The notes below the pieces were generated by a model. It was given only the letters and a program-made list of their open reading frames with translations, did not search any database and was not told where the DNA came from. DNA of 64,000 nt, from NCBI GenBank assembly GCA_001898835.1, contig MKVM01000001.1:625615-689614 (forward strand). Direction: 5' to 3'. A program made the position numbers and the translations under genes. Shown here in pieces: positions 1-16,872 of this stretch (position 1 is its first letter; each line of letters starts with the position of its first letter). The DNA is from Micrococcales bacterium 72-143 (GTDB taxonomy: Bacteria; Actinomycetota; Actinomycetes; Actinomycetales; Microbacteriaceae).

Positions 1-526
1 TTCCGCTACCCTCCAAATCAACCGCAGCTGCCCAGCGGAAAAAGGGCTCCACTTCAGGAGACCGCGTATCTTCTACCCACGACGCAACGCCTAGAGCATA
101 GATGCCAACGTTCTCGGGGTTGACGACGTCATTGACCGTGAAGTCTGCGAAATACAACCAGTAGTCGTTCCCACTAGCAGATACCTTGTAGTAGGCGAGC
201 AAGAGTTCGGATTTCTTGCCATGCGAAGCCGCATCCTTAGAATTGACGGTGTTCTCTTGCCATGTTATTTCGCCGCTCGGGAAGAACGAGAGAACGTAGT
301 CCAGGCCTTCATCGATCGCCGTTGCACGATCCAGCGCGTAGGGCGAGAACATGCCTTTCAGCGCGGCAGCATCGTGGCTCTTCAACGCGTCGGCGATCTG
401 CACCATCCGGGCCTCCGCCTTTCCATAGTCATCGTCGCGGAGACCGACCCTCCCGGGCAGAAGAGCACACGACGAAAGAAGCGCGGCAGCACCGAGCAGA
501 ACCACCACGGAAAGCAACCTCCTCAT
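1..526 (-). CDS. Lipoprotein paralogous to the rhs-linked immunity candidate; 3' end lies beyond the window edge
   Basis: Hand translation from ATG 526-524: MRRLLSVVVLLGAAALLSSC(lipobox)ALLPGRVGLRDDDYGKAEARMVQIADALKSHDAAALKGMFSPYALDRATAIDEGLDYVLSFFPSGEITW... It stays open for 175 codons to position 1. About 50% identical by eye to domain 1 of the 1463..2485 product. Absent from the ORF track because no stop lies in the window. Confidence 0.75.
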   Translation of the reverse strand, partial: MRRLLSVVVLLGAAALLSSCALLPGRVGLRDDDYGKAEARMVQIADALKSHDAAALKGMFSPYALDRATAIDEGLDYVLSFFPSGEITWQENTVNSKDAASHGKKSELLLAYYKVSASGNDYWLYFADFTVNDVVNPENVGIYALGVASWVEDTRSPEVEPFFRWAAAVDLEGSG

Positions 527-789
527 CGGGTTCCCTTCTTCGTCTTCCTTCTGAATCGCAGCGTCGCTGTCCGCGTATCGGGGTAGAACTCCCAAACGCG
601 ATCGTGACTCGCAGCACTGTTGTAAAAAGCTTCGTACATACCGTCGTTGGGAAATGTGATCGTGTACTCGACGGAGAGATCGGCCGCGGCCGGGTTCTGA
701 ACTCTTGAGGCCCAGTGTGCTTGGTGGAATCTGTGTCCGTTGCCAGGTCTCGAGGAGTTCTTCGAGGCTCGCTTCCACTCCGCATCCCC
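523..789 (-). pseudogene. Orphan rhs C-terminal fragment (core stub plus toxin tail, no start codon)
   Basis: One frame is open from the TAG at 792-790 to the TGA at 525-523: GDAEWKRASKNSSRPGNGHRFHQAHWASRVQNPAAADLSVEYTITFPNDGMYEAFYNSAASHDRVWEFYPDTRTATLRFRRKTKKGTR*. The last 59 aa align with the Rhs C-terminus (VQDPALNDIHATFTVDFSGDTGMFEAFQNEW...TATLRYRRKKKVRR*). There is no ATG/GTG/TTG ahead of the homologous part. The stop overlaps the next ATG (ATGA). Confidence 0.7.
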
Positions 790-1462
790 CTACTCGGGAA
801 GGAACACACCGGGCGGGGTCGTAGCCGCCACATCGAACGAGTCGAGCCACGCGAACAACGCCCGCTCCTGGGGCGAGTCGCCCGCCTCCGTGCGCGGCGC
901 GGCACCCACCGCGTAGATGCCTTCGATGCTGGGATCGGCCTCGTCTATCGGGAAATAGGCAAACGCCACCCAGAAATCCTTCCCGCCCGAACTGACCGGA
1001 TAGCTCGACAGCATCAGCACCGTCTGAACGCTATCGTCGCCCTCCGTCTTGCGAATGGTCGGGTCGTTCTGCAACTTGTCCCAGGCGACCTCCCCATCCG
1101 GGATATAGGCGAGGAGCGCAGCTACCCGGTCTCTGAGCCCCGCCCCAAGGGTGTCGAGCACGTAAGCGGAGAACCTCTCCTGTAACCCGAGGTTATCCCC
1201 GGAGTCCAGTTCCTCAACAATCCCGGTCATCAGGAAAGTCCAAGCAGGGTCGACACCAGCCGGGCTTTGATAGAACGCTGCATACATCCGATCGTTCGGG
1301 AACCTGATCGAATCTTCGGCTGAGAGGGTGTCGGCGGATGGGTTCTGCGCTCTGGAAGACCATGCTCCCACCCATGCTTGCCGCGCCTTTGGGCGGGATG
1401 AAGCGCCTCGGGTATTGGGCCGCTTCTTGAAGCGCCCCGACAACCTTCCCCTCGGCATCCCA
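790..1462 (-). pseudogene. Chimeric orphan cassette: rhs core stub, toxin-tail remnant, and an immunity domain-2 paralog fused in frame
   Basis: 1445..1462 (WDAEGK) is identical to rhs 3760..3777 but lies in a different frame from the rest. AQNPSADTLSAEDSIRFPNDRMYAAFYQS (1264..1350, frame of track ORF 790..1578) matches the toxin tail. From PAGVDPAWTFLMTGIVEELD to TTPPGVFLPE* it parallels domain 2 of the 1463..2485 protein. There is no signal peptide. The N-terminal 70 aa of the track ORF are Arg/Ser/Pro junk overlapping the upstream gene. Confidence 0.65.
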
Positions 1463-1897
1463 CTACTCGGGAAGGAAGATACCCGGCGGGGTCGTGCCCG
1501 CGACGTCGAACGAGTCGAGCCAGGCGAACAACGCCTGTTCCTGGGGCGAGCCACCCGCCGCGGTACGCGGCGCGGCACCGACCGCGTAGATGCCCTCCAG
1601 GCTCGGATCGGCCTCGTTCACCGGGAAGTAGGCAAACGACACCCAGAAATCCTTCCCGCCCGAACTCACGGGGTACGTCGACAGCATCAACACCGCTTGA
1701 CCGCCACCCTCGCTCGTCGCCTGGCGAATCACCGGGCCGTCCGACAACGCTTCCCAGGCGACCTCACCGTCGGGGAACATCCCCAGGAGCGCATCGATCC
1801 CGCCCTTCAGCCCCGCCGCGGCTCTCGCCCGATCACCGAACCTCGCCTCGAACCCGACATCATCCCCGGAGTCCAGCTCCTCTACGATGCCTTCCAT
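790..1897 (-). repeat. Direct repeat: immunity domain-2 coding segment present twice (790..1230 and 1463..1897)
   Basis: Both copies begin ctactcgggaaggaa... on the plus strand. 53/60 nt are identical in the first 60 nt by my count. Similarity stays high for about 200-250 nt and then decays. Protein C-terminal halves are ~85-90% identical and N-terminal parts ~45%, judged by eye. Confidence 0.8.
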
Positions 1898-2485
1898 CAC
1901 CCAGGTCGATATCCGCGGATCGACGTAGTCGGGAACGTAGACGCCTGGGTAGGCCATCTCGAATTTCTCATCCACGCTCATCGCGCCCGCCCATGAGAAG
2001 AACAACTGCGCGGGGCCAACATCGAGGGTGTCCGTATACGGCGACACCCCCATCGCGTAGATTCCCGCGCGGTCGGCACTACCACCTTCATTCACCGTGA
2101 CGTCGGCGAAGAACATCGTGAACTGTCTCCCGCCTGCTTTCACAATGTAGTACGCCTGCAGCATGTCGGTCCTCGTCCCAAACGAGCGCTGCCCCTCAGA
2201 CCCGATGGTACGCAGTTTCCAGGTGACGCCGCCATCAGGGAAGAACGACAGAAGATATTCCAGGCCAGCATCGATATCGGCTGCTTTCCCCAACGCATAG
2301 GGCGAGAACATCCCCTTCAACGCGGCGACGTCCCGATCGTTCAGGGCCGCCCCGATCTGCTCCATTCGGGCGTTTGCCTTCTGATGGTCGTTATCGAAGA
2401 TAAGTCCCCTTCCCGGGATGAGCCCGCACGATGAAAGGAGCATGGCGCAGGCTAGTGCTAGTACCCCGAATCGCAGTCGTCTCAT
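1463..2485 (-). CDS. Two-domain lipoprotein, candidate Rhs immunity protein
   Basis: In track ORF 1463..2569, the internal ATG at 2485 overlaps the rhs stop (ATGA). MRRLRFGVLALACAMLLSSC gives a signal peptide plus lipobox. Two tandem homologous ~145-aa domains follow. The immunity role is inferred from position only. Confidence 0.85.
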   Translation of the reverse strand: MRRLRFGVLALACAMLLSSCGLIPGRGLIFDNDHQKANARMEQIGAALNDRDVAALKGMFSPYALGKAADIDAGLEYLLSFFPDGGVTWKLRTIGSEGQRSFGTRTDMLQAYYIVKAGGRQFTMFFADVTVNEGGSADRAGIYAMGVSPYTDTLDVGPAQLFFSWAGAMSVDEKFEMAYPGVYVPDYVDPRISTWVMEGIVEELDSGDDVGFEARFGDRARAAAGLKGGIDALLGMFPDGEVAWEALSDGPVIRQATSEGGGQAVLMLSTYPVSSGGKDFWVSFAYFPVNEADPSLEGIYAVGAAPRTAAGGSPQEQALFAWLDSFDVAGTTPPGIFLPE

Positions 2486-5400
2486 CGTCGGACCTTCTTC
2501 TTTCGCCTGTAGCGCAGAGTCGCGGTGTGGTTCTTCGTGTCGAAATTCCAATAACTGCTGTCGTGCCATTCATTCTGGAACGCTTCGAACATTCCGGTGT
2601 CTCCGGAGAAGTCGACGGTGAATGTGGCGTGGATGTCGTTCAAGGCCGGGTCTTGGACGGCAGGGACAAATGTCGTGCACCACCATTGTTTCTCGGCGGG
2701 GGAATAGGACCCGATCGTGGCCCCGCGATAGTCGAGGGTCATCGACATCGGCAGAGCGACATCCGGATCCGCTTGCCAGAAGAACCCCTTCTCGGACAAC
2801 GGATTGTCTTGCGAGTAGAGCCCCAGCTCAGCTCCCGTGCCCAGGTTCAGGTAGTCGCCCTTCCAAGCCCACAAGACGTAGCTCTTGTCGTTGTACTCGA
2901 ATTCGAACTTGTGGGGCTCCATCGAGGTCCCGAGGTCGAAGGCAACGTCGTATGTGTCGTTGTAGCCGACGTACTGCTGCCACCCGTACTTGTTCGAGTG
3001 GTAGGCGCCATCTGCGGCGCGATCGAACCCCCAGAAGTTGAACCATCCCACTCCGTCACCCGGGTGCTGAGTGAATTGGACGTATGGCGGATTTTGGACG
3101 ACCAGTTGCACAATGCCCCGGATCAGGGTCTTGAACGGGTCGAATTGCGCCTTGGGCGGTGGCTGCGGTCCGCTCTTGCCCTTGCCGAGCCCCTTGCTGC
3201 TGCCGTCATACCCGTCCAGTGGCTTCTGCCCTGAGGGATCGGAGCAGGTCACCGGGTTGTTCCACCCGTACTGGTATGCGTTCAGCTGCGCCGGAATGGC
3301 GGGATCCAGCACAGGATCAACACTCAGGAACACCCCGCTCGCGGGCTCGTAGTAGCGGGCCCCCAGCAACGACAGCGACGTGCTCTCATCACGGGTGAGA
3401 CCGAGGAAGCCCTTGTCACCCGGAACACCCGCATCCGACCCGTCACGCGCCCCGCCGAACGGGTCCGTGCGCACCACCCGGGCACTCCCGACACCCCAGT
3501 CCGTGTTCGGCACCGCCGCGACCACCGAACCCTGATGATCCACGACCAGAGAAGCAACCCCGCCCAAGCCGCGCGAGGTCCGCACCGCCACCAACTGCCC
3601 GCTGAACGTGTAGTACCGGGTCGCCGACACCACCCCCGCAGACGAGATCACCAACTCCTGCCCACCCGGGAGATACACCGTCGTGCCCGAAGCATCCGCC
3701 CGCACCGTCCGCCCACCCGACACGTCATACACGTACTCCGCACCATCGACGCCGACAAGCTTCCCCTCGGCATCCCACTGGTAGTCGGTAGTCGCCCCGC
3801 CCGTCGTCGACGAGGCGCGGTTGCCGGCGTCGTCGTAGGCGAAGCTCGTCGCCGTCGAAGATCCGCCCGTCGTCTTCACCGAGGACGCGAGCTGGTGCGG
3901 CCCGAAGCCGCTGCCGCCGTGCGTATAGGAAGTGGTGGTGTCGGATCCGCCGCCGACGGCGTGCTCGAGCATCTGGGTGCGGTTGCCGAGCGCGTCGTAC
4001 GCGTACTCAGTCCAGTACGGACTCGTCCCGCCGACATCGGCGGTCGTGAGCGCGGACTGCGCGACCCCGCAGTTCCCCACCGTCGACGACCACGCCACCG
4101 TCAGCCGGCTCAGGCCGTCATACCCGAAGCACTGGTTGTCCTGACCTGTGGCGAGCGGACTCGCCTGGTCGAAGATGCTCGTGACGTTGCCGGCCTGGTC
4201 GTACCCGTAGTTCAGAGACAATCCCAGACCGTGGTTCTGACGGGTGAGCGAGATGTTCGCCAACCGTTCAGTGCCGGTCTCGTACTGGAAGGTCACGTAG
4301 GCGCCGTAGGTGTTGCCCAGGTCGAGGCCGCTGACACGCCCGTCGGCACCCACCCGGCTCTCGGCGACGTAGGTTCCCCAGCCGAAACCGCCGCCCATCC
4401 ACGAAGGAACCGACGCCGCGTCGAATCGGGTCGTGACGGCCTCCGCGCCGAGCGCCTTCGTGCCCGAGTGCGAAACGATCGCGGGCAGCATGACGGAAGC
4501 GAGCTGGCCGTCAGCGGTGTAGCTGTACTTCGTCGTGAACGACAAAGCGGCGAGGGCGTCGGCGTACTCGGGGAGGTTCGGCAGGGTGAGGGTTGTCGCC
4601 AGTGTCCGGTAGGCCGCGTCGTAGCGATCGACCGAGGTCGTATACGCCGCGCCATCGACGAAGCGAGTGGTGGACGACAGCTGGCCCAGCACCGGGTCGT
4701 CGTTCTCATCCAGCGACTGGTCATACTGCCACTGCGCCCGGATGGTGCCATTCACGGTGTCATCACGCAGCGTGGTGGTGCGACCGAGGACGTCGTAGGT
4801 GTAGGCGAGCGTGTCGCCGTTGCCGTTGGTGCGGGTGACCACCCGGTCTGCTTCGTCGTAGCTGGTGGTGGTCGTGCCGCCGTCCGGGTCGTCGGATGCG
4901 ACGAGGCGCCCGCCCCAGTCGTAGTCGTAGGTCCAGATGTGGTTGGCCGAGTCCCGCATCTTGACCAGGCGACCGGCGACGTCGTACTCGTAGTTCGTGG
5001 CCTGGTGGGGAAGCGCGAGCACCTCGACCGGGGTGTCGGCTGCGGCGTCGAGGTCGGGATCGCGAAGGTACTCGGTCCGCGCCACAACCCGGCCGAGCGC
5101 GTCGACCGTCGAGCCCTGCGGAGCCTTCCCGAGCGGCGGGATGACGAGCGTGGTGTCGCCGTCGTAGGCGGTGACCGTGCGCCACCGCTCGTTCGCGGGG
5201 TTGGAGTCCGTGCCCACCCAGAAGATCTCGGCGACGACCCTGCCCGCGGCGTCATAGTCATAGGTGGTCAGCGACGGCGGCACCGGGATCGGAACGATCG
5301 GGGTTGCGGTCGGCGCACCCTCTGCCCACCAGCGGCCGGCCTGACGCGCGACGCGGCCCGCCGAATCGTAGTAGGTGTGCGTCACCATGCGCCCACGGTC

Positions 5401-8400
5401 CGCGGCCGATGCATCGTGGCCGGCGCCGGCGTCACGGCCCGACGTTTGGGTCTGGAACACTCGCAACAGCCCGTCGTAGAGCGTGACGCTCACCAGTTGG
5501 CTGGACCCGTTCGCGGCGAGTGTCCTGGTGACCACCGAGTTGAGACCGTTCGGGTCGACGCGGTATTCGTACGCGACCGATGGCAGCGGAGTGCTCTGGT
5601 GCTGCGGGCGCCGCACGGTCAGCAGGCGGCCCAGCGCGTCGTAGCTTCCGGAGGTGACCAGACCGTTCGTATCGACGGTGGAGGTCACGAGACCTGTGAG
5701 CGGGTTCAGGTGGGTCACGGTCTGGAACCCCGACAGCGGACCCCACCCGTCCGGGTCGGGGCCGGTCGTGGTCACGGTCTGCGTGAGTCCGCCGGCGGCT
5801 TCCTGGTAGGCAGTCGTCGTGACGTTGCCGAACGGGTCCGATACCTCCAGCGGCCGACCACGGTCGTCGTAGGACAGCACACGGCTGACCAGGATGCTCC
5901 CCACCCCGTCCGCCGGGTCGAGGCGGTCGGTGCGCTCTACCCTGCCGAAGTCGTCATAGCTGGAGGTCGTGTCCGAGATCAGGTCTCCGGGGAGCGCGGG
6001 GCTGGTCCCGCATGCCACCGAGATCACCTGGGTCTCGGAGACCAGCGCGACCAGGTGCTTGGCGGCCAGCGTGCCATTGCTCGCCGCCGCGTAGGTCATC
6101 GTTGTGCAGGTATTGTCCGCGGAGGTCGTCAGGTCGCCGCGATCATCGACCGAGGAGACCTGGGAGTTCGCGTCGAAGCTGCGGGTCTGCCTGGTGTGGT
6201 GGGTCAGGGCTCCGGCCGCGTCGTAGCCGAACCCGTCGGTGGTCTGCGAGGGCAGGCGGGTCGATTTCACCCCCGCCGCGCTCGTGCCCGTCACGACGGG
6301 CACGCCGAAGGTGGTGACCGTGTCGGACACGGGGGTCACGCCGTTCAGCGTCGTGCTGACGAATACCTGGCCTTGGTACTCCTCCCGGTCGAGGGCCGAC
6401 ACGGTGGACCCGCTCGGGCCCGCGGTCAACGTGCCGCCAGTACCGCGGTAGTAGGTGGACCGCATGCTCGTGGCGTCGGCGCCGATGCCGATCGTGGTCG
6501 TGACCGTCTTCACGCCCCGGAAGTCCGAGTAGGTCACCTCGTCGGGCTTCACCATCGCGCCCGTGGGCTTGGCCCATGCCGCCCCGTCGCCGTAGCCGAA
6601 GGCGGTCACCTTCGCGACGGAACCCGTGATGAGCTCCTCCGACTCCTCCGCGACGGGCGCGGCACCGGATTCCACGATCGACTGGACGACCCACTTGTGG
6701 AAGTACTCGGTCAACGCGCTGCTCGTGCCGCCCGGGTACCACTTCACGGGGAAGCAGAGACGGGCGTTGGCGGCCTGGGCGGGTTCGGAGATGCCGGGGA
6801 CGTCACCGGGACCGCAGTCGGTCGCGTAGTTGACCGACACCTGGGCACCGGAGTCGGTGCGGATGCCGATCATCCTCGGTCGGAGGAGCGGCAGCACGAG
6901 CGCGTCGGTGGCGATCCGGTTCTCGAGGAAGTCGTACGTGAACAAGAACGGCGACCCCGTGATGTCGTCGCTCGTGGAGGCGGTTCCGCCCTTGCCGGTG
7001 TGCGTGACGGAGCGCAGCACGAGTGTCACGTTGCTCGCGTATGCGAGATCGACACCGGCTCCTTCGCCCTCGAACGTCTGGCCGAACACCCAGGCGTCGA
7101 CCGGAGCATAGGCGGCGCCGTCGTACGCGAACGTCGAGACCGCGCGGAGACGGGTGAGATCGAAGAACACCGGCGTGTAGCTTCCGCACTCGCCGGGGAC
7201 GCTCGAGGTGCACACCAGATCGGTCGGCGTGTCCAGCCAGTGGTTCTCGGACGTGGAGCTCTGCCCGTTCGAGCAGAAGGAGTTCGGCGCGGTGAGGTTC
7301 GTGATGCAGCGGGGGCCGTAGTCGAACACGACCTTCGCGGGCGCGTTGGCCACGTTCTCGGAGCCGACCCGGGTCCCGTACTCGATGCGGTCGACATGCC
7401 CACCGGAGACGTATGCGACGCTCGCCCCCGCGGTATTGCCGGTGACGTCGTAGATGTAGCGGTTGGTCTCGGCGTCGTAGAAGTAGCTCATAGAGTTGCC
7501 GGACACGTCCACGACGTAGTCGAGGTTCCACCGCCACACCTGCGTGCACGCCGAGTCGCTGAACGTCGCGTGGTAGCACGGCTCCCCGGGGTGGTTGCCG
7601 TAGACCGGCACCGTCCAGGCCGAGTTCAGAGCCGGGCCGTTGGCCGAGGTCTTCCCGCGGCCGAAGTAGTACCGGGTGCCGTCGGAGGTCGTCAGCTTCC
7701 AGTATTCATCGGCCTGCCCGGCGTTCCACGACGAGCCGGTGACCCGTTCGATGACGGAGCCGTCCTCGTTCTTGGGATGCCATTGCCCGGTGGGGGCATC
7801 GCGCACGAGTTCCACGGCGGTGCCGTTGAGCATCAACGTGGCGTTCTCGGCGCCCCAGCACAGGTCCCCGGTCACCCGGCCGATGTTGTTCGCCGCGCCC
7901 TCCTCGTCGCGAGAGCAGGGGGTGTAGCTTCGCTCCACATAGCCTTCGGTGAGGGCGAACCCCTCCCCGATCGTCCCGGACTGGTTGTTCGTGGAGGGCG
8001 TGCGACCGTCGATGCTTCCGGACGAGTAGGAGATCGTCAGTTCCGGCGCAGGACCCGCGGGCGCTGTCGGGACGCCGATCGGCAGCGACCAGGTGAAGGC
8101 GCCCGTAGAGCCCGCCGAGCCCCAGGTCGAGGATTGGGACAGGCTCGTGGCACCCCAATCGCCCTCCGAACCCGACGAATCCGCGGTGACGGCCAGCGAC
8201 CCTCCGCCGCCGGAACCCGAAGCCAGACGGCCCGGCGCCTGGCTCGTGCGCAGGGACGCGGGCCGCGCCCCGTCCGCGCTCGGCGCCACCGGCACGACCG
8301 CCGTCACCGTCTGCGTGGCGGGATCGTTCACGGTGTCCAGCGGCAGCGGGGTGCACGGCCCGCCGCCCGCGCACTCGGGAATCCAGACGAACCGGAGCCT

Positions 8401-8988
8401 CGACGCCCAATCGCCCGACACCAGACCCGCGAACGTGGCGTACGAGAGAGTCAGCTCGACCCCGGAGTCCGGCACCGGATCCGCGGAGGCATCGGTGACG
8501 TCCAGCAGAACCCCGGTGATGCCCGCGGCGTCGGTCTCCTCGTCGCCGGCGACCCGGAGCAACACAGCCGCCGGCGTGGCGGCCGCCCCGTCCGGGGCGA
8601 CCGTGACCTCCATCCCGCCCAGGTCGACCGTAACCGGATCGGGGGTCGGGGTCCCGGTGCTCGACTGCCCGGCACCGAGTGAGGCAGGGCGCGCCCCCTC
8701 CTCGGTCAGAACGACCAGCTGCTCATCCTCGTCGGGAAGCGAGGCCCCGATTTCCGGGATCGCACCGGCCGCGCCCGGCGCCGCCCAGGAGCCCGTGAGC
8801 GGAACCGCGGCCGCCGCCTCTGTCGAGCCGAGCGCCGCAATCGCGTCGCTGAATCCCTCGGCCCGCGTCTGAAGGCCGGAGGCGCTCGCCGCGACGGCGG
8901 CGGGATCGATGGTGAGGGTCAGCGTGAGCGCGGCGGCGGTGAGGGCGGCGGTGCCGGCGCGGAGTCGGATGCGGAGGTTCCGGTTCAT
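2482..8988 (-). CDS. Rhs/YD-repeat polymorphic toxin, 2168 aa, with Sec-type signal peptide and C-terminal cargo domain
   Basis: Many YD repeats are present (YEYDVAGRL, TYDYDWGGRL, YTYDVLGR, YDALGRLLTV, YAYDALGNRT, FAYDDAGNR). The core end reads GARYYEPASGVFLSVDP...NAYQYGWNNPVTCSDPSGQ. Start is set at MNRNLRIRLRAGTAALTAAALTLTLTIDPAAVAASA (aa 141 of the track ORF), where ATG 8988-8986 overlaps the upstream stop (ATGA). Confidence 0.95.
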   Translation of the reverse strand: MNRNLRIRLRAGTAALTAAALTLTLTIDPAAVAASASGLQTRAEGFSDAIAALGSTEAAAAVPLTGSWAAPGAAGAIPEIGASLPDEDEQLVVLTEEGARPASLGAGQSSTGTPTPDPVTVDLGGMEVTVAPDGAAATPAAVLLRVAGDEETDAAGITGVLLDVTDASADPVPDSGVELTLSYATFAGLVSGDWASRLRFVWIPECAGGGPCTPLPLDTVNDPATQTVTAVVPVAPSADGARPASLRTSQAPGRLASGSGGGGSLAVTADSSGSEGDWGATSLSQSSTWGSAGSTGAFTWSLPIGVPTAPAGPAPELTISYSSGSIDGRTPSTNNQSGTIGEGFALTEGYVERSYTPCSRDEEGAANNIGRVTGDLCWGAENATLMLNGTAVELVRDAPTGQWHPKNEDGSVIERVTGSSWNAGQADEYWKLTTSDGTRYYFGRGKTSANGPALNSAWTVPVYGNHPGEPCYHATFSDSACTQVWRWNLDYVVDVSGNSMSYFYDAETNRYIYDVTGNTAGASVAYVSGGHVDRIEYGTRVGSENVANAPAKVVFDYGPRCITNLTAPNSFCSNGQSSTSENHWLDTPTDLVCTSSVPGECGSYTPVFFDLTRLRAVSTFAYDGAAYAPVDAWVFGQTFEGEGAGVDLAYASNVTLVLRSVTHTGKGGTASTSDDITGSPFLFTYDFLENRIATDALVLPLLRPRMIGIRTDSGAQVSVNYATDCGPGDVPGISEPAQAANARLCFPVKWYPGGTSSALTEYFHKWVVQSIVESGAAPVAEESEELITGSVAKVTAFGYGDGAAWAKPTGAMVKPDEVTYSDFRGVKTVTTTIGIGADATSMRSTYYRGTGGTLTAGPSGSTVSALDREEYQGQVFVSTTLNGVTPVSDTVTTFGVPVVTGTSAAGVKSTRLPSQTTDGFGYDAAGALTHHTRQTRSFDANSQVSSVDDRGDLTTSADNTCTTMTYAAASNGTLAAKHLVALVSETQVISVACGTSPALPGDLISDTTSSYDDFGRVERTDRLDPADGVGSILVSRVLSYDDRGRPLEVSDPFGNVTTTAYQEAAGGLTQTVTTTGPDPDGWGPLSGFQTVTHLNPLTGLVTSTVDTNGLVTSGSYDALGRLLTVRRPQHQSTPLPSVAYEYRVDPNGLNSVVTRTLAANGSSQLVSVTLYDGLLRVFQTQTSGRDAGAGHDASAADRGRMVTHTYYDSAGRVARQAGRWWAEGAPTATPIVPIPVPPSLTTYDYDAAGRVVAEIFWVGTDSNPANERWRTVTAYDGDTTLVIPPLGKAPQGSTVDALGRVVARTEYLRDPDLDAAADTPVEVLALPHQATNYEYDVAGRLVKMRDSANHIWTYDYDWGGRLVASDDPDGGTTTTSYDEADRVVTRTNGNGDTLAYTYDVLGRTTTLRDDTVNGTIRAQWQYDQSLDENDDPVLGQLSSTTRFVDGAAYTTSVDRYDAAYRTLATTLTLPNLPEYADALAALSFTTKYSYTADGQLASVMLPAIVSHSGTKALGAEAVTTRFDAASVPSWMGGGFGWGTYVAESRVGADGRVSGLDLGNTYGAYVTFQYETGTERLANISLTRQNHGLGLSLNYGYDQAGNVTSIFDQASPLATGQDNQCFGYDGLSRLTVAWSSTVGNCGVAQSALTTADVGGTSPYWTEYAYDALGNRTQMLEHAVGGGSDTTTSYTHGGSGFGPHQLASSVKTTGGSSTATSFAYDDAGNRASSTTGGATTDYQWDAEGKLVGVDGAEYVYDVSGGRTVRADASGTTVYLPGGQELVISSAGVVSATRYYTFSGQLVAVRTSRGLGGVASLVVDHQGSVVAAVPNTDWGVGSARVVRTDPFGGARDGSDAGVPGDKGFLGLTRDESTSLSLLGARYYEPASGVFLSVDPVLDPAIPAQLNAYQYGWNNPVTCSDPSGQKPLDGYDGSSKGLGKGKSGPQPPPKAQFDPFKTLIRGIVQLVVQNPPYVQFTQHPGDGVGWFNFWGFDRAADGAYHSNKYGWQQYVGYNDTYDVAFDLGTSMEPHKFEFEYNDKSYVLWAWKGDYLNLGTGAELGLYSQDNPLSEKGFFWQADPDVALPMSMTLDYRGATIGSYSPAEKQWWCTTFVPAVQDPALNDIHATFTVDFSGDTGMFEAFQNEWHDSSYWNFDTKNHTATLRYRRKKKVRR

Positions 8989-11960
8989 TGCCCGGCTCCT
9001 GACGTCGGGTCGAGGGCGAGGTTGCCTTGTGCGAAGTCGGTGGCTTCGGCACCCTGGCACAGGCGGCGGATCTTGGACTCGGCGACGACGGAGCCGGAGA
9101 ACACGCGCACGTTGTCGATCGAGCCCGCCCAGAATCCGTTGCCGCTGCCGCCCTGCAGCGCGCGACCGACGGTGAACGCTCCGGACGCGGGCCACGGGGT
9201 GGCGGTACGTGCAGCTTGGGTGCGCACCGGCTCCCCGACAGCGGGATCCTCCGGTGTGCCGATCTCGCACACCCAGAGCCGCATCGTGTGGGCGGTCGCG
9301 TCGTGTTCGCCGACCAGGTGCACCCATTCGCCTGTGGTCACGGGGAGTGCCGAGGTGACCATGGTGTTCGGGCCGGACGGCGCGTCGGGCATCGCGAAGC
9401 TCCAGCATCCGCCGGTCATTGCGGGGCAGCTGGCCGTGTAGCCGAGGCGGAAGCCGGACTGCGTCACACCATCTTGGGCGAGGGCCGTCGCATCCGCGCC
9501 GAGGGCTGCCGGGTCCAGCAGCACGTGGGCGGAGATCGTGAACGACTTCGTGGTGTCCACGACGGGGCCGGAGGTCTGAGCCCAGTCGTTCACGCCGTCC
9601 AATACGAGCGCGTGGTCACCGCCGCGGGAGTCGAACAGGCTGTGCGGGCCCTCCCCCCAGGAGGCGCCGTTGACCGTCAGCGGTCTCGCCGGGTTGCCGG
9701 CGCCATCGGCTGCCGTCGTACCGGTGCCCTCGTCGAACATCCAGATGCCGTCCTCGGTCGCCGTCGCGACCGTGAACAGGTAGCTGGTGGGGGACGACAC
9801 GTTGCCTGCGGCGTCCTTGGTGGTGACGGTGAGGGTGACCGGGCCCGACACGGACGGCGTGTAGGAGATCGTCGCCGTCCCTGCGGTCGCGCTGACCGTG
9901 GTCGGGTTCGCGCTGTTGTTGAAGCCATAGGCGAAGGAGACGGCGTCGCTCGCGGTGCCGGCGGAGAGCACGAAACCTCCCTGCTGCCCGACGCCACCGC
10001 GTTCCTTGCCCTGCTCGTAGCGCGCGGCGCCGACGTCGCTTGCGGCCACGGTCGGGGGTGGCGGTGCCGTGACGTCGACCACGAACTCGCACCATCCCGA
10101 CCATGCCCCGTACAGCGACCCGTCCCAGCTGCGGGCGCGCCACGCGTACGCGGTCCCATCGCTCAGCGTGGCTCCGACCAATGCTGTCGCGGTCGCGCCG
10201 CTCGCGACCGCGGGAAGGCCGGTGCCGCTGCTCCACACCGGTGCGGTGAGGCTGGACACCGGCGCCACCTCGAACGAAGGCGTGACGTTCGTGCCGTCCG
10301 GGTCGGACACCACCGCCTGAAGGGTCGGCTTCGCGGATGCGATCGCGGGCCGGGATGCGCCGGTCACGCAGCCCGCGATGCTCGGCACCGCGAGCCGCAG
10401 GCTCGTCGGAGCGGCGGGAGGCCGGTTGTAGGTGGCCTGCACGGTCGCGTCGTGACGGAATCGCTTCCATCCGTTCATGTTCGACTCGTCGACGAGGAGC
10501 GCCACATACAGGTTGGATTGGTCGGCATCCGCCATCCACTTGAAGCCCGCGGTCGCATCGAACGACTTCCATCCGTCGGTGCCGCAGCTCGCCTTGCTCG
10601 ACTCGGTGCGCGACCCCAGCGCCTGCTGTGCCGAAATACCCGACCACGTCGTCCCGCTCGAGAACGCCGCCACCCGATACAAGGTCGTCGTCTGCGCGGT
10701 GCAGTTGTAGGAATGCACCCCGTTGACCACGAACTGGGCGCTCACGATGTCCGCGCCCGCCATCGCGGCGATCTGCGTCAACCCGCTGAACTGCCACGCC
10801 AGCCGTTGCTTGAACGAGGTGTTGCACGACGCCACCTGGTTGCAGTTGCCCGTGCCCTGCCCCGGCATCGACGCGGAGATGTCTCCCCAGTTCACCAGAG
10901 TGTTCGAATACCCGCCCGTGCGGACCGCTATCCGCAGCGCCGGACCCCACCCGCTGAAACTCGGGTCCAGATACACCGGCCACACCGTCCCCGGATCCTC
11001 CAGCATCCCTGCATCCGGCGAAACGATGAGCGCATCCCCGTCGACACGCAGGCCCATCTGCGCCACCCGGTCCCCATCGACCGGCGCGCGGGTGCGGTCA
11101 CCCGCGCCCACCTCCGTGACCGTCTGCGGCAACGACACCGACGCCCCGGCCGAGTCCCACATCATCGGCAGCGCCACCGCGAACTGCGGCTCCCCCTGCG
11201 CATCCACGACACGCACCGCACCGTCGGCATCCGCCTCGAGACGCAAACCGGTCGACAGACGCGTCGCGAACTCCAGATCGAGCCCGGACTCGCCGCTCGC
11301 CGCGCCCACCGCAGCCAATCGTTCCGCAAGGCGCTCCGCTGCGCCCGCATCGGCGAGCTCGACCACCGGGAGAAACCCCGTGCCGTCCGCATCCACCGAC
11401 ACCAGCAAACGGATGCCGTCGCCCAGGTCGTAGCTCAGCTGCGAACCGGCCACGGCGGGCTCGGGCAACTCCAGCGGGAAGCCGACGCCCAGGCTGTGGC
11501 CGTCCTTCTCGATGGTGCCCAGCGGCTGCTCCCGCCCGGCCGCACCGCCCGCATTCAACGTCATCGGGAACGCCGACGCCGCGACCCGCAGCACGCCCGA
11601 CGAGCGATCGGCGACCAGAGAGGTGTCAGGCGCCACCCACGCTCCTCCGACCTCGACTCGCGCCGGCACGGCCGACAGCTGCAACCGCGCCGTCCCATCC
11701 GCCGCCGCCCACGACGTACGCCACGGCGTGCGCTCCGACAGCACCTCCACGTCCACGCCACAGGCTCGGGCGATCGGTGACGCGGCCTCGAACGACGCCG
11801 CCTCCGCCACCGAGCAATCCACCCCGCCACGGCCCACGCCCGTGAGCTGCACCACGGCGACCGCTCCCCCGGACACCACCAGGGCCAGCGCGACGAACAC
11901 CGCGACCATTCGGCGCAAACGTGACGCGAGCAATCCTCGCATCCGCGCGCTCACAGGCAT
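8985..11960 (-). CDS. Membrane-anchored large beta-rich protein with C-terminal LamG/concanavalin-like domain
   Basis: N-terminal RLRRMVAVFVALALVVSGGAVAVVQL is a TM anchor. The C-terminus FTISAHVLLDP...GEWVHLVGEHDATAHTMRLWV...GSIDNVRVFSG is typical of the LamG jelly roll. The start is uncertain (ATG 11960 or 11942; the track ORF starts at 12077). The stop overlaps the rhs ATG. Confidence 0.85.
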   Translation of the reverse strand: MPVSARMRGLLASRLRRMVAVFVALALVVSGGAVAVVQLTGVGRGGVDCSVAEAASFEAASPIARACGVDVEVLSERTPWRTSWAAADGTARLQLSAVPARVEVGGAWVAPDTSLVADRSSGVLRVAASAFPMTLNAGGAAGREQPLGTIEKDGHSLGVGFPLELPEPAVAGSQLSYDLGDGIRLLVSVDADGTGFLPVVELADAGAAERLAERLAAVGAASGESGLDLEFATRLSTGLRLEADADGAVRVVDAQGEPQFAVALPMMWDSAGASVSLPQTVTEVGAGDRTRAPVDGDRVAQMGLRVDGDALIVSPDAGMLEDPGTVWPVYLDPSFSGWGPALRIAVRTGGYSNTLVNWGDISASMPGQGTGNCNQVASCNTSFKQRLAWQFSGLTQIAAMAGADIVSAQFVVNGVHSYNCTAQTTTLYRVAAFSSGTTWSGISAQQALGSRTESSKASCGTDGWKSFDATAGFKWMADADQSNLYVALLVDESNMNGWKRFRHDATVQATYNRPPAAPTSLRLAVPSIAGCVTGASRPAIASAKPTLQAVVSDPDGTNVTPSFEVAPVSSLTAPVWSSGTGLPAVASGATATALVGATLSDGTAYAWRARSWDGSLYGAWSGWCEFVVDVTAPPPPTVAASDVGAARYEQGKERGGVGQQGGFVLSAGTASDAVSFAYGFNNSANPTTVSATAGTATISYTPSVSGPVTLTVTTKDAAGNVSSPTSYLFTVATATEDGIWMFDEGTGTTAADGAGNPARPLTVNGASWGEGPHSLFDSRGGDHALVLDGVNDWAQTSGPVVDTTKSFTISAHVLLDPAALGADATALAQDGVTQSGFRLGYTASCPAMTGGCWSFAMPDAPSGPNTMVTSALPVTTGEWVHLVGEHDATAHTMRLWVCEIGTPEDPAVGEPVRTQAARTATPWPASGAFTVGRALQGGSGNGFWAGSIDNVRVFSGSVVAESKIRRLCQGAEATDFAQGNLALDPTSGAGQ

Positions 11961-12146
11961 CCCCACACGGGCTCCCCCCACCAGCGACACCAAGCTGAGT
12001 ATGAATCCGCGCCGCACGCTACACGCCCGCGAGGCGCCAGCACAAGACATTGGTGAACCTTTCTCGCGCGCCCGCAAAAGACCGCCCCGCGGCTCGCTCC
12101 GCGATCACCTCGCCCCACCCGAAGGCCGGAGGCTAGCGTTGACCCG

Positions 12147-12695
12147 ATGACGAGCGACACCACCCTCCCCGCACCCTCCGCCCACGCGCGGCGGGAGACG
12201 CATCCGGCGGTCTCGATCCTCGTGCTGCTCGGCTCCGTGCTGCTCGCGACCGGGATCGGGGTGGTCGGCTCGTTCGCGACCGTGGCGCACGTCGACGGCT
12301 GGTACGCGGATGCCGAGAAGGCCGCCTGGACGCCGCCCGACATCGTCTTCGGTCCGGTCTGGACCGCGCTCTACCTCATGATGGCGGTCGCCGCGTGGCT
12401 CGTCTGGCGCCGCCGCCACGAGACGCCCGTCACCTCGGCGCTCGTCGCCTACCTCGTTCAGCTGCTGCTCAACGCCGCGTGGACACCCGTGTTCTTCGCC
12501 CTCTACCCCAGCTGGGGCGTCGCCGCGCTGTGGGCGGCTTTCGGCATCATCGTGGCGCTCATCGCGGCCGTCATCTTCACCATCCTGAGGTTCTGGCCGA
12601 TCCACCGCGGCGCGGCGATCCTGCTCATGCCCTACCTCGCGTGGATCGTCTTCGCCTCGAGCCTCAACGTCACGATCGCGGCCTACGCGAGCTGA
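12147..12695 (+). CDS. tspO: TspO/MBR family tryptophan-rich sensory protein
   Basis: Five TM helices, with WYADAEKAAWTPPDIVFGPVWTALY and LNAAWTPVFFAL signatures. Confidence 0.9.
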   Translation: MTSDTTLPAPSAHARRETHPAVSILVLLGSVLLATGIGVVGSFATVAHVDGWYADAEKAAWTPPDIVFGPVWTALYLMMAVAAWLVWRRRHETPVTSALVAYLVQLLLNAAWTPVFFALYPSWGVAALWAAFGIIVALIAAVIFTILRFWPIHRGAAILLMPYLAWIVFASSLNVTIAAYAS

Positions 12696-12784
12696 GCCGC
12701 GTCGAGGGCGATGTACGTCGTCTCGAGGTACTCCTCGAAGCGCACCGACCTATCGAGGGAAATCGACGGAAGATAGCTCGTCAT
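12683..12784 (-). pseudogene. Short ORF (33 aa), probably the 3' remnant of a truncated gene
   Basis: MTSYLPSISLDRSVRFEEYLETTYIALDAAQLA*. The last 21 codons have 20/21 G/C at the third position, which matches the native coding signature. The first 12 codons lie in low-GC sequence. It overlaps the tspO 3' end by 13 nt and is below the ORF-track size cut-off. Confidence 0.35.
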
Positions 12785-12878
12785 CGCGACAACCGTGTCG
12801 GTATCCGGATCGTGACCCGTGTCGGACTGCGGCCGTAGCGTGTCTCACGACGCACCGACGCACGGAGAGAGGCCAGAG

Positions 12879-13781
12879 ATGTCAGAGCAGAGCGCGCCGC
12901 AAGCGAAGACGATCCGAGAAGAGGTCAACGCGTTGTTCGGGGTCCGCTGGGACACGCTCATGGAGTGGGTCGTCATCTCGTGGCTGAGCCTGTGGTTCTG
13001 GTCGTCATTTCGGATCGAGCGAAACCTCCTCGTCTGGGACGGCGATGGTCCGCTAACCGGCACCGAAAGCTTCCTGCGTTCCGTCGACATCGCACCCCCC
13101 ACATGGGTGAGCCAGGCTGTCGACTGGATCCTCGACCCCTCGCGCGGTTGGTTGTCGGCAGCTCTCGTCGTGCTCGCGGTCGTATCGTGCGTAACCGCGG
13201 TGCGCAGCTACCGCCTTTCGGGTCTGCGCACGCTGGCCCTGCTGTCCGTCGCGGTCGTATGCGAGATCGCCGGCAGCCTGTGGCCCGTGGTATGGGTACT
13301 CAGCCTGGCGGCGATCCCCGCCGCGATCGCATGGGGTATCTCGTTCGTCAACGATGTTCGCAAGAAGAGCGGGTACGACGAGTACACCTACTACTACGGC
13401 AACGCGATCCTGAGCAACTATTTCGCTCGGATCGTGCTTCTGTTCTTCGCCCCCGTGCTCGCACCGGCGCTCCTCGCGGGTCAGTTGGTGGTCAGCTTCC
13501 GAACTGAGCTGCCGCGCGATGCGGCAGCGGAAATCAGCAGGGAGGTGAGGCACACGCTCGAGGCCCGGGGATTCCAGCGGATCGACGAACTGGATGCGCT
13601 CACCGTGATGGCCGCGTCCGCCGCAATTCAGCTCGCGGGGAACGACTCTCGGGAGGCTCGCGAGATCCTGGGCGGGTACCAATTCGAGTTGGTGCAGCGG
13701 CGCGAAGCAGAAGCGCTTCACGCCAGATCGCGGAAACAGTGGGATACGTTGATGGGACTCGAACCCCGCCCCGGAGCGTGA
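12879..13781 (+). CDS. Hypothetical multi-pass membrane protein (orphan, low GC)
   Basis: In track ORF 12819..13781, ATG 12879 is preceded by ggagagagg. Several hydrophobic helices are present (WVVISWLSLWFW, ALVVLAVVSCV, LALLSVAVVCEIAGSLWPVVWVLSLAAIPAAIAWGI, IVLLFFAPVLAPALLAG). Hand-counted lines give 52-62% GC. Confidence 0.6.
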   Translation: MSEQSAPQAKTIREEVNALFGVRWDTLMEWVVISWLSLWFWSSFRIERNLLVWDGDGPLTGTESFLRSVDIAPPTWVSQAVDWILDPSRGWLSAALVVLAVVSCVTAVRSYRLSGLRTLALLSVAVVCEIAGSLWPVVWVLSLAAIPAAIAWGISFVNDVRKKSGYDEYTYYYGNAILSNYFARIVLLFFAPVLAPALLAGQLVVSFRTELPRDAAAEISREVRHTLEARGFQRIDELDALTVMAASAAIQLAGNDSREAREILGGYQFELVQRREAEALHARSRKQWDTLMGLEPRPGA

Positions 13782-16128: not shown

Positions 16129-16872
16129 CTACACGACGAGGTCGAGCTCGCCCGGGGCACCCGGCTCGAGGCGCACGCCGGCGGCAGCGGCCCAGCCGAG
16201 CAGCGAGTCGACATCCGGGTGGTCGATCCCTGCGAGCAGCAGCGCGCGCGTGAGGCGGCCCTTGCCCGCCTTGTTGAAGTGGTTGAGCGCACGACGACGC
16301 CCGCCCTCCTCGGTCACGACGCGCAGGAACACCGAGTTCGCGCGCGCCGGTGCGGGCCCGAGCGCCGCATAGGCCTCCGACCGCAGGTCGAGCACGAGTC
16401 CGGGGGCGGCGTCGACGACGGCCGAGATCGCCGCCGCCCACTGCCTCCTGAGCTGAAGTCCGGGCAGCCGGGAATCCGCGGACAGACGATAGGCGGGGAT
16501 CGGGTCCAGGGCGCGCGTCAGCCCGAACAGGGCGGACGCGATGGCGAGATGCTCCTGGGCGAACCGGCGGGCGGCCTCCGGGAGGGTCTCCGCGTCGAGG
16601 GCGTCGTAGAGCACGCCGTCGTAGCGGTCGAGCGACGGGAGCACGGGCGAGCGACGGATGCGGCGGTTGCGTTCCGCCTCATGCGCCTGCGTCGGACCCA
16701 GCTTGAGCGCCACCGCGGACGCCGCGGGGTCGCGCGCGAGCTCCTCCAGGGCGGCGAGCACCCTCCGGCGGGGAGCGGCGAGGGTCGGGAACCCGAGCTC
16801 GCCCACGGCGAGACGCGTCCCCTCGGCACCCCCCTCGCGCTTGGTCTCAGAGGGCGGAAGGAGGATCAGCAC
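16129..16872 (-). CDS. yaaA: Peroxide stress protein YaaA (DUF328)
   Basis: MLILLPPSETK N-terminus and overall YaaA-like sequence. 247 aa. Confidence 0.85.
   Translation of the reverse strand: MLILLPPSETKREGGAEGTRLAVGELGFPTLAAPRRRVLAALEELARDPAASAVALKLGPTQAHEAERNRRIRRSPVLPSLDRYDGVLYDALDAETLPEAARRFAQEHLAIASALFGLTRALDPIPAYRLSADSRLPGLQLRRQWAAAISAVVDAAPGLVLDLRSEAYAALGPAPARANSVFLRVVTEEGGRRRALNHFNKAGKGRLTRALLLAGIDHPDVDSLLGWAAAAGVRLEPGAPGELDLVV

Follow-up and report, generated by a model that had tools for sequence, protein, structure and literature searches.

Two orphan cassettes downstream of an actinobacterial rhs gene are probably remnants of displaced toxin and immunity alleles

The window analysed here, a stretch of 64,000 nucleotides from Micrococcales bacterium 72-143 (GenBank assembly GCA_001898835.1, contig MKVM01000001.1, positions 625,615 to 689,614), contains at its left edge the tail of an actinobacterial polymorphic-toxin locus, in which a complete rhs gene together with its putative cognate immunity gene are followed by two orphan cassettes, A and B, each made up of a short stub of rhs core sequence, a truncated toxin tail and immunity-gene sequence. 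We consider it likely that these orphans are the remnants of earlier toxin/immunity alleles left by C-terminal displacement. This agrees with the original prediction of past toxin alleles downstream of the active pair: the cassettes consist of non-functional DUF4474/DUF5104 modules whose toxin tails and first immunity domains (immN) are saturated at synonymous sites. All rhs, immunity and orphan-cassette features are on the minus strand, and their order is a gene for a LamG-domain protein, the rhs gene with its DUF4474 toxin, a two-domain DUF5104 lipoprotein immunity gene and the two orphan cassettes.

The junctions between the units are marked by copies of an 18-nt segment of the rhs core, TGGGATGCCGAGGGGAAG, which encodes WDAEGK. 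The segment is present exactly at 3777..3760 in rhs and at 1462..1445, directly after the TAG of the immunity gene (1465-1463), as had been predicted, and the exact pair extends to 27 of 28 nt (1437-1464 versus 3752-3779). Stub A (1437..1462) thereby comprises the 18 identical nt plus 7 of the next 8 nt, and no base separates it from the immunity stop codon. The predicted second copy was also recovered: stub B (772..789; GDAEWK), which reads GGGGATGCGGAGTGGAAG at 789..772, matches 15 of the 18 positions with 3 mismatches and begins at the first base after the TAG of cassette A (792-790). The difference in preservation, 27/28 against the core for stub A and 15/18 for stub B, fits a newer and an older junction. 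The rhs copy precedes the rhs stop by 431 codons, where about 330 had first been stated, and lies 181 codons upstream of the PxxxxDPxG(L) border between the core and the C-terminal region, read from the translation as PVTCSDPSGQ (3226..3255). The window contained 4 matches to the stub with up to 3 mismatches, compared with about 0.09 expected by chance. The fourth of these, GGGGGTGCCGAGGGGACG at 16816-16833 on the minus strand, has 3 mismatches and is distant from the rhs locus; it is probably a chance match.

The stub in rhs coincides with a break in codon composition. The frequencies of G and C at third codon positions (G3/C3) are about 0.38/0.52 upstream of the stub and about 0.6/0.25 just downstream of it. 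A change-point scan of G3/C3 over the whole rhs core reached its maximum at 3720-3780 (chi2 = 16.9 at 3744), and the stub copy, with the 28-nt repeat around it (3752..3779), is thus placed at the strongest third-position G/C discontinuity of the gene. The shift was significant by Fisher tests both with 180 codons on each side (p = 5e-4) and against all upstream codons (p = 3e-6), and it was not seen in the 78%-identical rhs gene of the metagenome locus L013. These data support the view that rhs has a mosaic boundary at its WDAEGK site.

The downstream partner in the active pair provides the reference for the immunity sequences of the cassettes. The active immunity gene (1463..2485) is ATGA-coupled to the rhs stop and encodes a 340-aa lipoprotein with a LLSSC lipobox (...LLSSCG) and two tandem DUF5104-like domains, immN (~2485..1960) and immC (~1930..1466), which align with each other with z = 18.7 over shuffles. 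The Pfam DUF5104 profile matched residues 43-147 (E = 7.1e-14), and the two DUF5104 bit scores above threshold in the locus, 52.6 and 56.3, compare with a cut-off of 27. The immN half is hypervariable and presumably determines specificity; the immC half is conserved. Homologues with two DUF5104 domains exist elsewhere, and the two domains are fused in the proteins P0005-P0007 and in the loci L008, L009 and L013. Single-domain DUF5104 lipoproteins have a normal length of 188 aa and end in ...GYPG[IV]YVP[ER].

Both orphan tails are homologous to the toxin. They match the extreme C-termini of unrelated DUF4474 proteins (30-42% identity) and can be aligned to the L008, L009 and L013 toxins, and alignment scores over shuffles were z = 17 for the B tail with the rhs tail and z = 21 for the A tail with the B tail. 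The original prediction had each stub followed by about 90 nt of degenerate sequence and then by only the last 30-60 toxin codons. The tails are indeed truncated, but their extents differ from this description: A retains ~55 toxin codons and lacks the last ~20, while the homology in B covers the last ~65-75 codons including the stop, and the linkers without detectable homology are shorter, ~50 nt after stub A and ~30 nt after stub B. Positions that are invariant among DUF4474 domains are G90, Y91, D96, F99, W122-Y128, G132-Y140 and W185. The orphan tails keep only toxin residues from ~172 on, and all invariant positions except W185 lie upstream of this point. The orphan toxins are dead because they have lost the invariant residues G90 to Y140, and no re-arming is possible by recombination with the core stub.

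Levels of synonymous divergence differ strongly between the parts of the cassettes. The synonymous substitution frequencies (dS) were ~1.5 for immN between the active gene and cassette B and ~1.4 for the tail between rhs and B, and the proportion of synonymous differences (pS) between the A and B tails was 0.80, so that both the tails and the immN copies have reached saturation at synonymous sites. By comparison, all pairs of immC copies yielded dS values of 0.35-0.47. The contrast indicates that the modules are mosaics, in which a hypervariable core of toxin and immN is placed between two conserved arms, formed by the Rhs core with its stub and by immC. The ratio of nonsynonymous to synonymous divergence (dN/dS) for immC was 0.15 between the active gene and B and 0.45 for pairs involving A. 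Values below 1 indicate that most of the divergence accrued under purifying selection, while the sequences were working genes. Taken together, these data support the interpretation that the cassettes are distinct old alleles and not recent copies.

Cassette A contains more than the stub and toxin tail of the original prediction. Its tail fragment (RGASSRPKARQAWVGAW...FPNDRMYAAFYQS...WTF; 1234..1410) is read in frame +1 with respect to stub A and continues without a frame change into a copy of immC (790..1251), which has neither a signal peptide nor an immN half and ends with the TAG at 792..790. The fusion point falls on a short D-P/R-x-W (D-P-x-W) motif that is common to the toxin tail and the inter-domain linker of the immunity protein. 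The A copy of immC is 67% identical in amino acid and 78% identical in nucleotide sequence to the active immC (z = 80), with only 46-63% nucleotide identity in its first half and a repeat that is 83% identical over 300 nt, and its score against Pfam DUF5104 (16.4 bits) is below the threshold. As a fused fragment without a signal, cassette A is probably inert.

In cassette B, stub, linker and tail form one continuous open frame of 88 codons in total (linker and DUF4474 tail at 523..771), ending with the TGA at 525..523. As predicted, it is ATGA-coupled to a lipoprotein gene (1..526) that is about 50% identical to the active immunity gene, more precisely 47-48% identical to immN, and the B tail has diverged from the rhs tail to a similar degree (47% amino acid identity). 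The gene encodes a DUF5104 lipoprotein of 188 aa (Pfam E = 5.1e-15) and runs 41 nt past the edge of the window. The 188-aa protein is intact and could still protect against the old toxin of neighbours if the gene were transcribed by read-through.

More cassettes had been considered possible to the left of the window. Thirteen public metagenome contigs, 99.9-100% identical over the region, carry the gene for the active immunity protein, and for the leftward extension we used one of these, the 117-kb contig L001, which matches the window exactly from 2485 to 1 and on which the immN and immC sequences compared here lie at 10001-12983. Past the window edge, L001 contains only the rest of cassette B: the stop codon of the lipoprotein reading frame, a 1-nt insertion frameshift and a third copy of immC (12529..12983), 88% identical in amino acid sequence to the active immC and ending with a TAG at 12983. 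A convergent gene for a DAO-family oxidoreductase ends 17 bases after this TAG. The array thus ends ~500 nt beyond the window and consists of exactly three units, with no further cassettes. The linker codons of B (DPRISTW) are preserved in the shifted frame, which shows that the split between immN and immC in B is a recent 1-nt frameshift and not a designed gene boundary. A resemblance between CGGGAGGC, which follows the last immC TAG, and TGGGATGC was also considered; the match of 6 out of 8 is too short to count.

Public annotation of L001 has gene calls at 11256-11696 (146 aa), 12080-12526 (148 aa) and 12549-12983 (144 aa), which represent fragments or use internal starts. The first 40 codons of the B lipoprotein, including the signal peptide, are absent from the 148-aa call. 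A look-up of the exact B lipoprotein sequence in protein records found no entry, because the gene callers took the internal start. The locus is therefore of practical value for annotation.

We propose that new C-terminal modules would have recombined into rhs and pushed older toxin/immunity alleles downstream. The left join would lie at or near the core site encoding WDAEGK and the right join directly after the stop codon of the incoming immunity gene, so that each orphan would retain a short core stub, the last ~55-75 toxin codons and all or part of an immunity gene. The Rhs core with its stub and immC are the likely homology arms for such exchanges of modules. Both the order and the mechanism of the recombination events are what we infer from these patterns. 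Of the original prediction, the role of the core site is supported by the mosaic boundary at WDAEGK, and displacement there followed by internal deletion would be only one of several routes to the same structure. The linkers after the stubs have no significant homology to the end of the rhs core, to the toxin or to each other, and hence an internal deletion is only the presumed cause of the truncations.

Several observations weigh against this interpretation. The divergence of L013, which has the closest relative of the rhs gene, starts at DPSG and not at WDAEG. The junction blocks, consisting of the 3' end of immC, the TAG and the stub, are mutually homologous with a uniform identity of 83%, and the flush junction may therefore have formed once and then been copied. 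Two truncations with similar end points on both sides are awkward to explain by two independent deletions. The original prediction suggested that related loci be examined for full-length versions of the orphan toxins. In the collections searched, neither the two orphan toxins nor the B immunity gene had a full-length relative, the best match to immN being 60% identical. A protein search with the B tail gave no candidates, and searches with the B immN and the toxin domain gave family members only, none of them close to the orphans. A scan of the genome collection with the immunity protein gave no hits, and a scan with the immC alignment gave a single locus, 31% identical, in a metagenome-assembled genome (MAG) of Pseudolysinimonas. 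None of these results thus supports a horizontal origin of the modules, although the databases may simply lack the relatives. The 13 contigs with the locus represent one strain, and there is no ancestral or alternative arrangement among them. Finally, promoter and terminator scans gave no signal above shuffled controls.

The strongest competitor to displacement is a tandem duplication in situ, in which an unequal crossover joins the base after the immunity stop codon to the WDAEGK site in rhs, once or twice and without foreign DNA, and the copies then decay by deletion and point mutation. A duplication of 3777..1463 would automatically set the stub flush with the TAG. It would also account for the regular period (673 nt for unit A) and for the uniform 83% identity of the blocks of immC, TAG and stub, a value shared by the 15/18 match of stub B. 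Nevertheless, one duplication date cannot give both saturated tails and immN copies and an immC dS of 0.35-0.47, the dN/dS values of 0.15-0.5 place most of the divergence in a period when the sequences were under purifying selection as working genes, and the break in codon composition at the stub in rhs also speaks against a duplication. We therefore regard a local duplication as unlikely.

Working stand-alone genes downstream of rhs, forming a selected island of immunity genes with the toxin tails as translational lead-ins, seem quite improbable. The gene callers do predict immC-only open reading frames (ORFs) of 146 aa and 144 aa as well as the lipoprotein ORF, both immC ORFs begin with MTGIVEELDSG with an ATG at the same aligned position, immC has dN/dS values of less than 1 (0.15 in B, 0.45 in A), the 188 aa of the B protein are of normal length for the single-domain family, and arrays of several DUF5104 genes occur elsewhere. 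However, the immC-only ORFs have no signal peptide, lipobox or evident ribosome-binding site. In the active protein the same methionine occupies an internal position, and P0005-P0007, L008, L009 and L013 have the domain in fused form. In addition, the split in B is a recent frameshift, and the first half of the A immC has diverged from the active copy to the low identities given above.

Displacement also has to be compared with the capture of cassettes at a defined site, in which the stub, and possibly immC, would act as an integron-like recombination site, precise at the stop codon, for example through circular intermediates produced by stub-to-stub recombination. This model would accommodate the two junctions that are exactly stop/stub, the conserved arms (stub and immC) that flank a hypervariable middle, and the truncated DUF4474 fragment of L009, which also begins at the first base after a TGA. 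It is contradicted by the absence of any called recombinase or integrase gene within 10 kb and of inverted repeats or attC-like structures in 1-2600, in both of which the locus differs from integron cassettes. The stub is, moreover, a mere YD-repeat coding motif that is conserved in L013 as WDAEGE, no stub follows the immunity stops in L013 and L024, and both junctions in the window may be one copied event. We consider site-specific capture highly unlikely. A related possibility is that the two stop/stub junctions and the flush start in L009 are non-accidental and reflect a precise, integrase-free capture and stacking of cassettes in actinobacterial polymorphic-toxin loci, guided by short homology, for which the stub would provide the upstream arm and immC the downstream one. 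It appears very unlikely as well. A chance resemblance of the stubs and tails to rhs, for which only the short length of the stub speaks, is refuted by formal alignment, that is by the 4 stub matches against 0.09 expected, the 27/28 repeat, the tail scores of z = 17-21 and the independent matches to DUF4474 C-termini.

Both downstream stubs contain an ATG (GGGATGC; 1457-1459 and 784-786 on the minus strand). This ATG shares the frame of the 222-codon ORF of cassette A, in which the tail and immC are fused, and does not share that of the tail in cassette B. A general role of the stub as a ribosome-binding site or start was rejected, since the ATG is out of frame in B.

C-terminal displacement was reportedly put forward by Jackson and colleagues in 2009 as the source of orphan rhs-CT/rhsI modules, where CT denotes the C-terminal toxin region. 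Poole et al. (2011, PMC3150448) describe such modules downstream of full-length rhs genes. In common with them, the cassettes in the window are located on the same strand after the pair of rhs and immunity gene, have no translation start of their own, consist of a 5' fragment of the rhs core, a toxin remnant and an immunity gene, and are stacked in series as alleles. Each also has immunity sequence of its own, in B the lipoprotein gene followed by the frameshift and immC, in A the immC half only. They differ in their core fragment, which is only 18-27 nt long and originates 181 codons upstream of the PxxxxDPxG border rather than at the border. Classical modules keep PxxxxDPxGL and the whole C-terminal region, whereas the cassettes keep neither, which is a further point against displacement: core homology does not continue through a DPxGL motif, there is no DPxG, the linkers are unlike the end of the core, and the toxin domain is incomplete, with ~70% of each domain missing. 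The host is also a high-GC Gram-positive, there is no context of a type VI secretion system (T6SS), and DUF4474 and DUF5104 are uncharacterised.

A second known case is that of the T6SS in Vibrio cholerae, where sequential displacement leaves effector 3' ends and arrays of immunity genes (Kirchberger et al. 2017, PMC5361080). Homology-facilitated illegitimate recombination, with one end anchored by homology and the other joined illegitimately, has been proposed for these arrays and was explicitly linked to Rhs loci (PMC5361080). As in Vibrio (PMC5361080), an old immunity gene, sometimes with an effector 3' end, is left downstream, and the array in the window has both stacked immunity genes and effector 3' fragments. 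Vibrio orphans closely resemble active pairs of other strains, whereas no close active counterpart was found here, and the array in the window differs further in that a duplicated core stub is flush with the stop codon, one immunity orphan is truncated and another is frameshifted. Orphan cdiA-CT/cdiI pairs of contact-dependent growth inhibition (CDI) systems are likewise tandem tip/immunity pairs that keep a short conserved sequence, there VENN-coding (Poole et al. 2011); they belong to a different family of delivery proteins, and CDI orphans usually retain complete, active toxin domains.

The locus in the window thus extends the picture of orphan toxin/immunity fossils to a high-GC Gram-positive bacterium whose Rhs locus is Sec-type and non-T6SS and has a pair of DUF4474 toxin and DUF5104 lipoprotein. 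In the active gene as well as in the orphans, the recombination scar can be placed within ~30 nt. It leaves the understanding of such loci unchanged, orphans of this kind being a familiar by-product of toxin-tip swapping.

Adjacent DUF4474 and DUF5104 genes recur in L008, L009, L013, L018 and L024, and truncated DUF4474 tails together with DUF5104 genes recur in L008, L009 and L024. L008 contains a 102-aa DUF4474 tail and four immunity ORFs, and L009 a 129-aa tail inside a PT-HINT polymorphic-toxin locus. At 4240-4270 in L009, which is unrelated to the locus in the window, a 5'-truncated DUF4474 fragment (VFWVWKGDY...) follows a 193-aa gene and starts with the base next to the TGA of that gene. 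The region 2535-10316 of L024, from a Galbitalea sp. MAG (GCA_037203625.1), contains an Rhs-DUF4474 gene, four or five DUF5104 genes, an orphan tail of ~60 aa and adjoining transposases. The orphan tail in L024 is preceded by a second copy of the very last part, at the 3' end, of its toxin gene (...RAILQLNN*), indicating a more complex rearrangement.

The active pair itself forms a genuine Rhs operon of toxin and putative immunity gene, because RHS_repeat (PF05593, E = 8.3e-25 in 5 stretches), SpvB (3.4e-7) and DUF4474 (7.7e-15) match the Rhs protein and DUF5104 matches the lipoprotein encoded by the ATGA-coupled gene. The full-length rhs gene (2482..8988), called as a gene on the source contig and annotated there with TEN_YD-shell, encodes 2168 aa plus the stop, with an N-terminal signal-like sequence, a SpvB-like region, the shell-forming YD/RHS repeats characteristic of Rhs/YD-repeat polymorphic toxins and the C-terminal DUF4474 domain. 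The border of the PxxxxDPxGL type typical of Rhs proteins is apparent both in PVTCSDPSGQ and in the comparison with L013, in which the identity falls from ~75% before the DPSG border to 20-50% in the windows after it. The lipoprotein gene directly downstream is the putative cognate immunity gene, as judged from its position and DUF5104 domains.

The DUF4474 toxin domain of 250 aa (2485..3234) passes the Pfam gathering cut-off of 23 bits with 58.8 bits (E = 6.9e-16), and 48 homologues were found. An AlphaFold model of the domain was confident, with a predicted local distance difference test score (pLDDT) of 83 and a predicted template modelling score (pTM) of 0.79. A fold search of the PDB with this model gave no significant match (best E 0.099, TM < 0.2), nor did a PDB sequence search with the toxin, and full-text literature searches for DUF4474 and DUF5104 found no papers. 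The toxin probably acts outside the cytoplasmic membrane, on an envelope target, because the immunity proteins are lipoproteins, and DUF4474 and DUF5104 are a candidate envelope-acting toxin/immunity system. One DUF4474 homologue (P0092) carries an annotation to Piromyces sp. E2, an anaerobic fungus, whereas Ruminiclostridium and metagenomes are the source of most other matches; its presence in the fungus may reflect inter-kingdom transfer or contamination.

Upstream of rhs, a gene on the minus strand (8985-12077) encodes a 1030-aa protein with Laminin_G_3 and Ig-like domains. Its stop codon overlaps the rhs start as ATGA, which couples the two genes translationally, and the protein may be an accessory or partner of Gram-positive Rhs.

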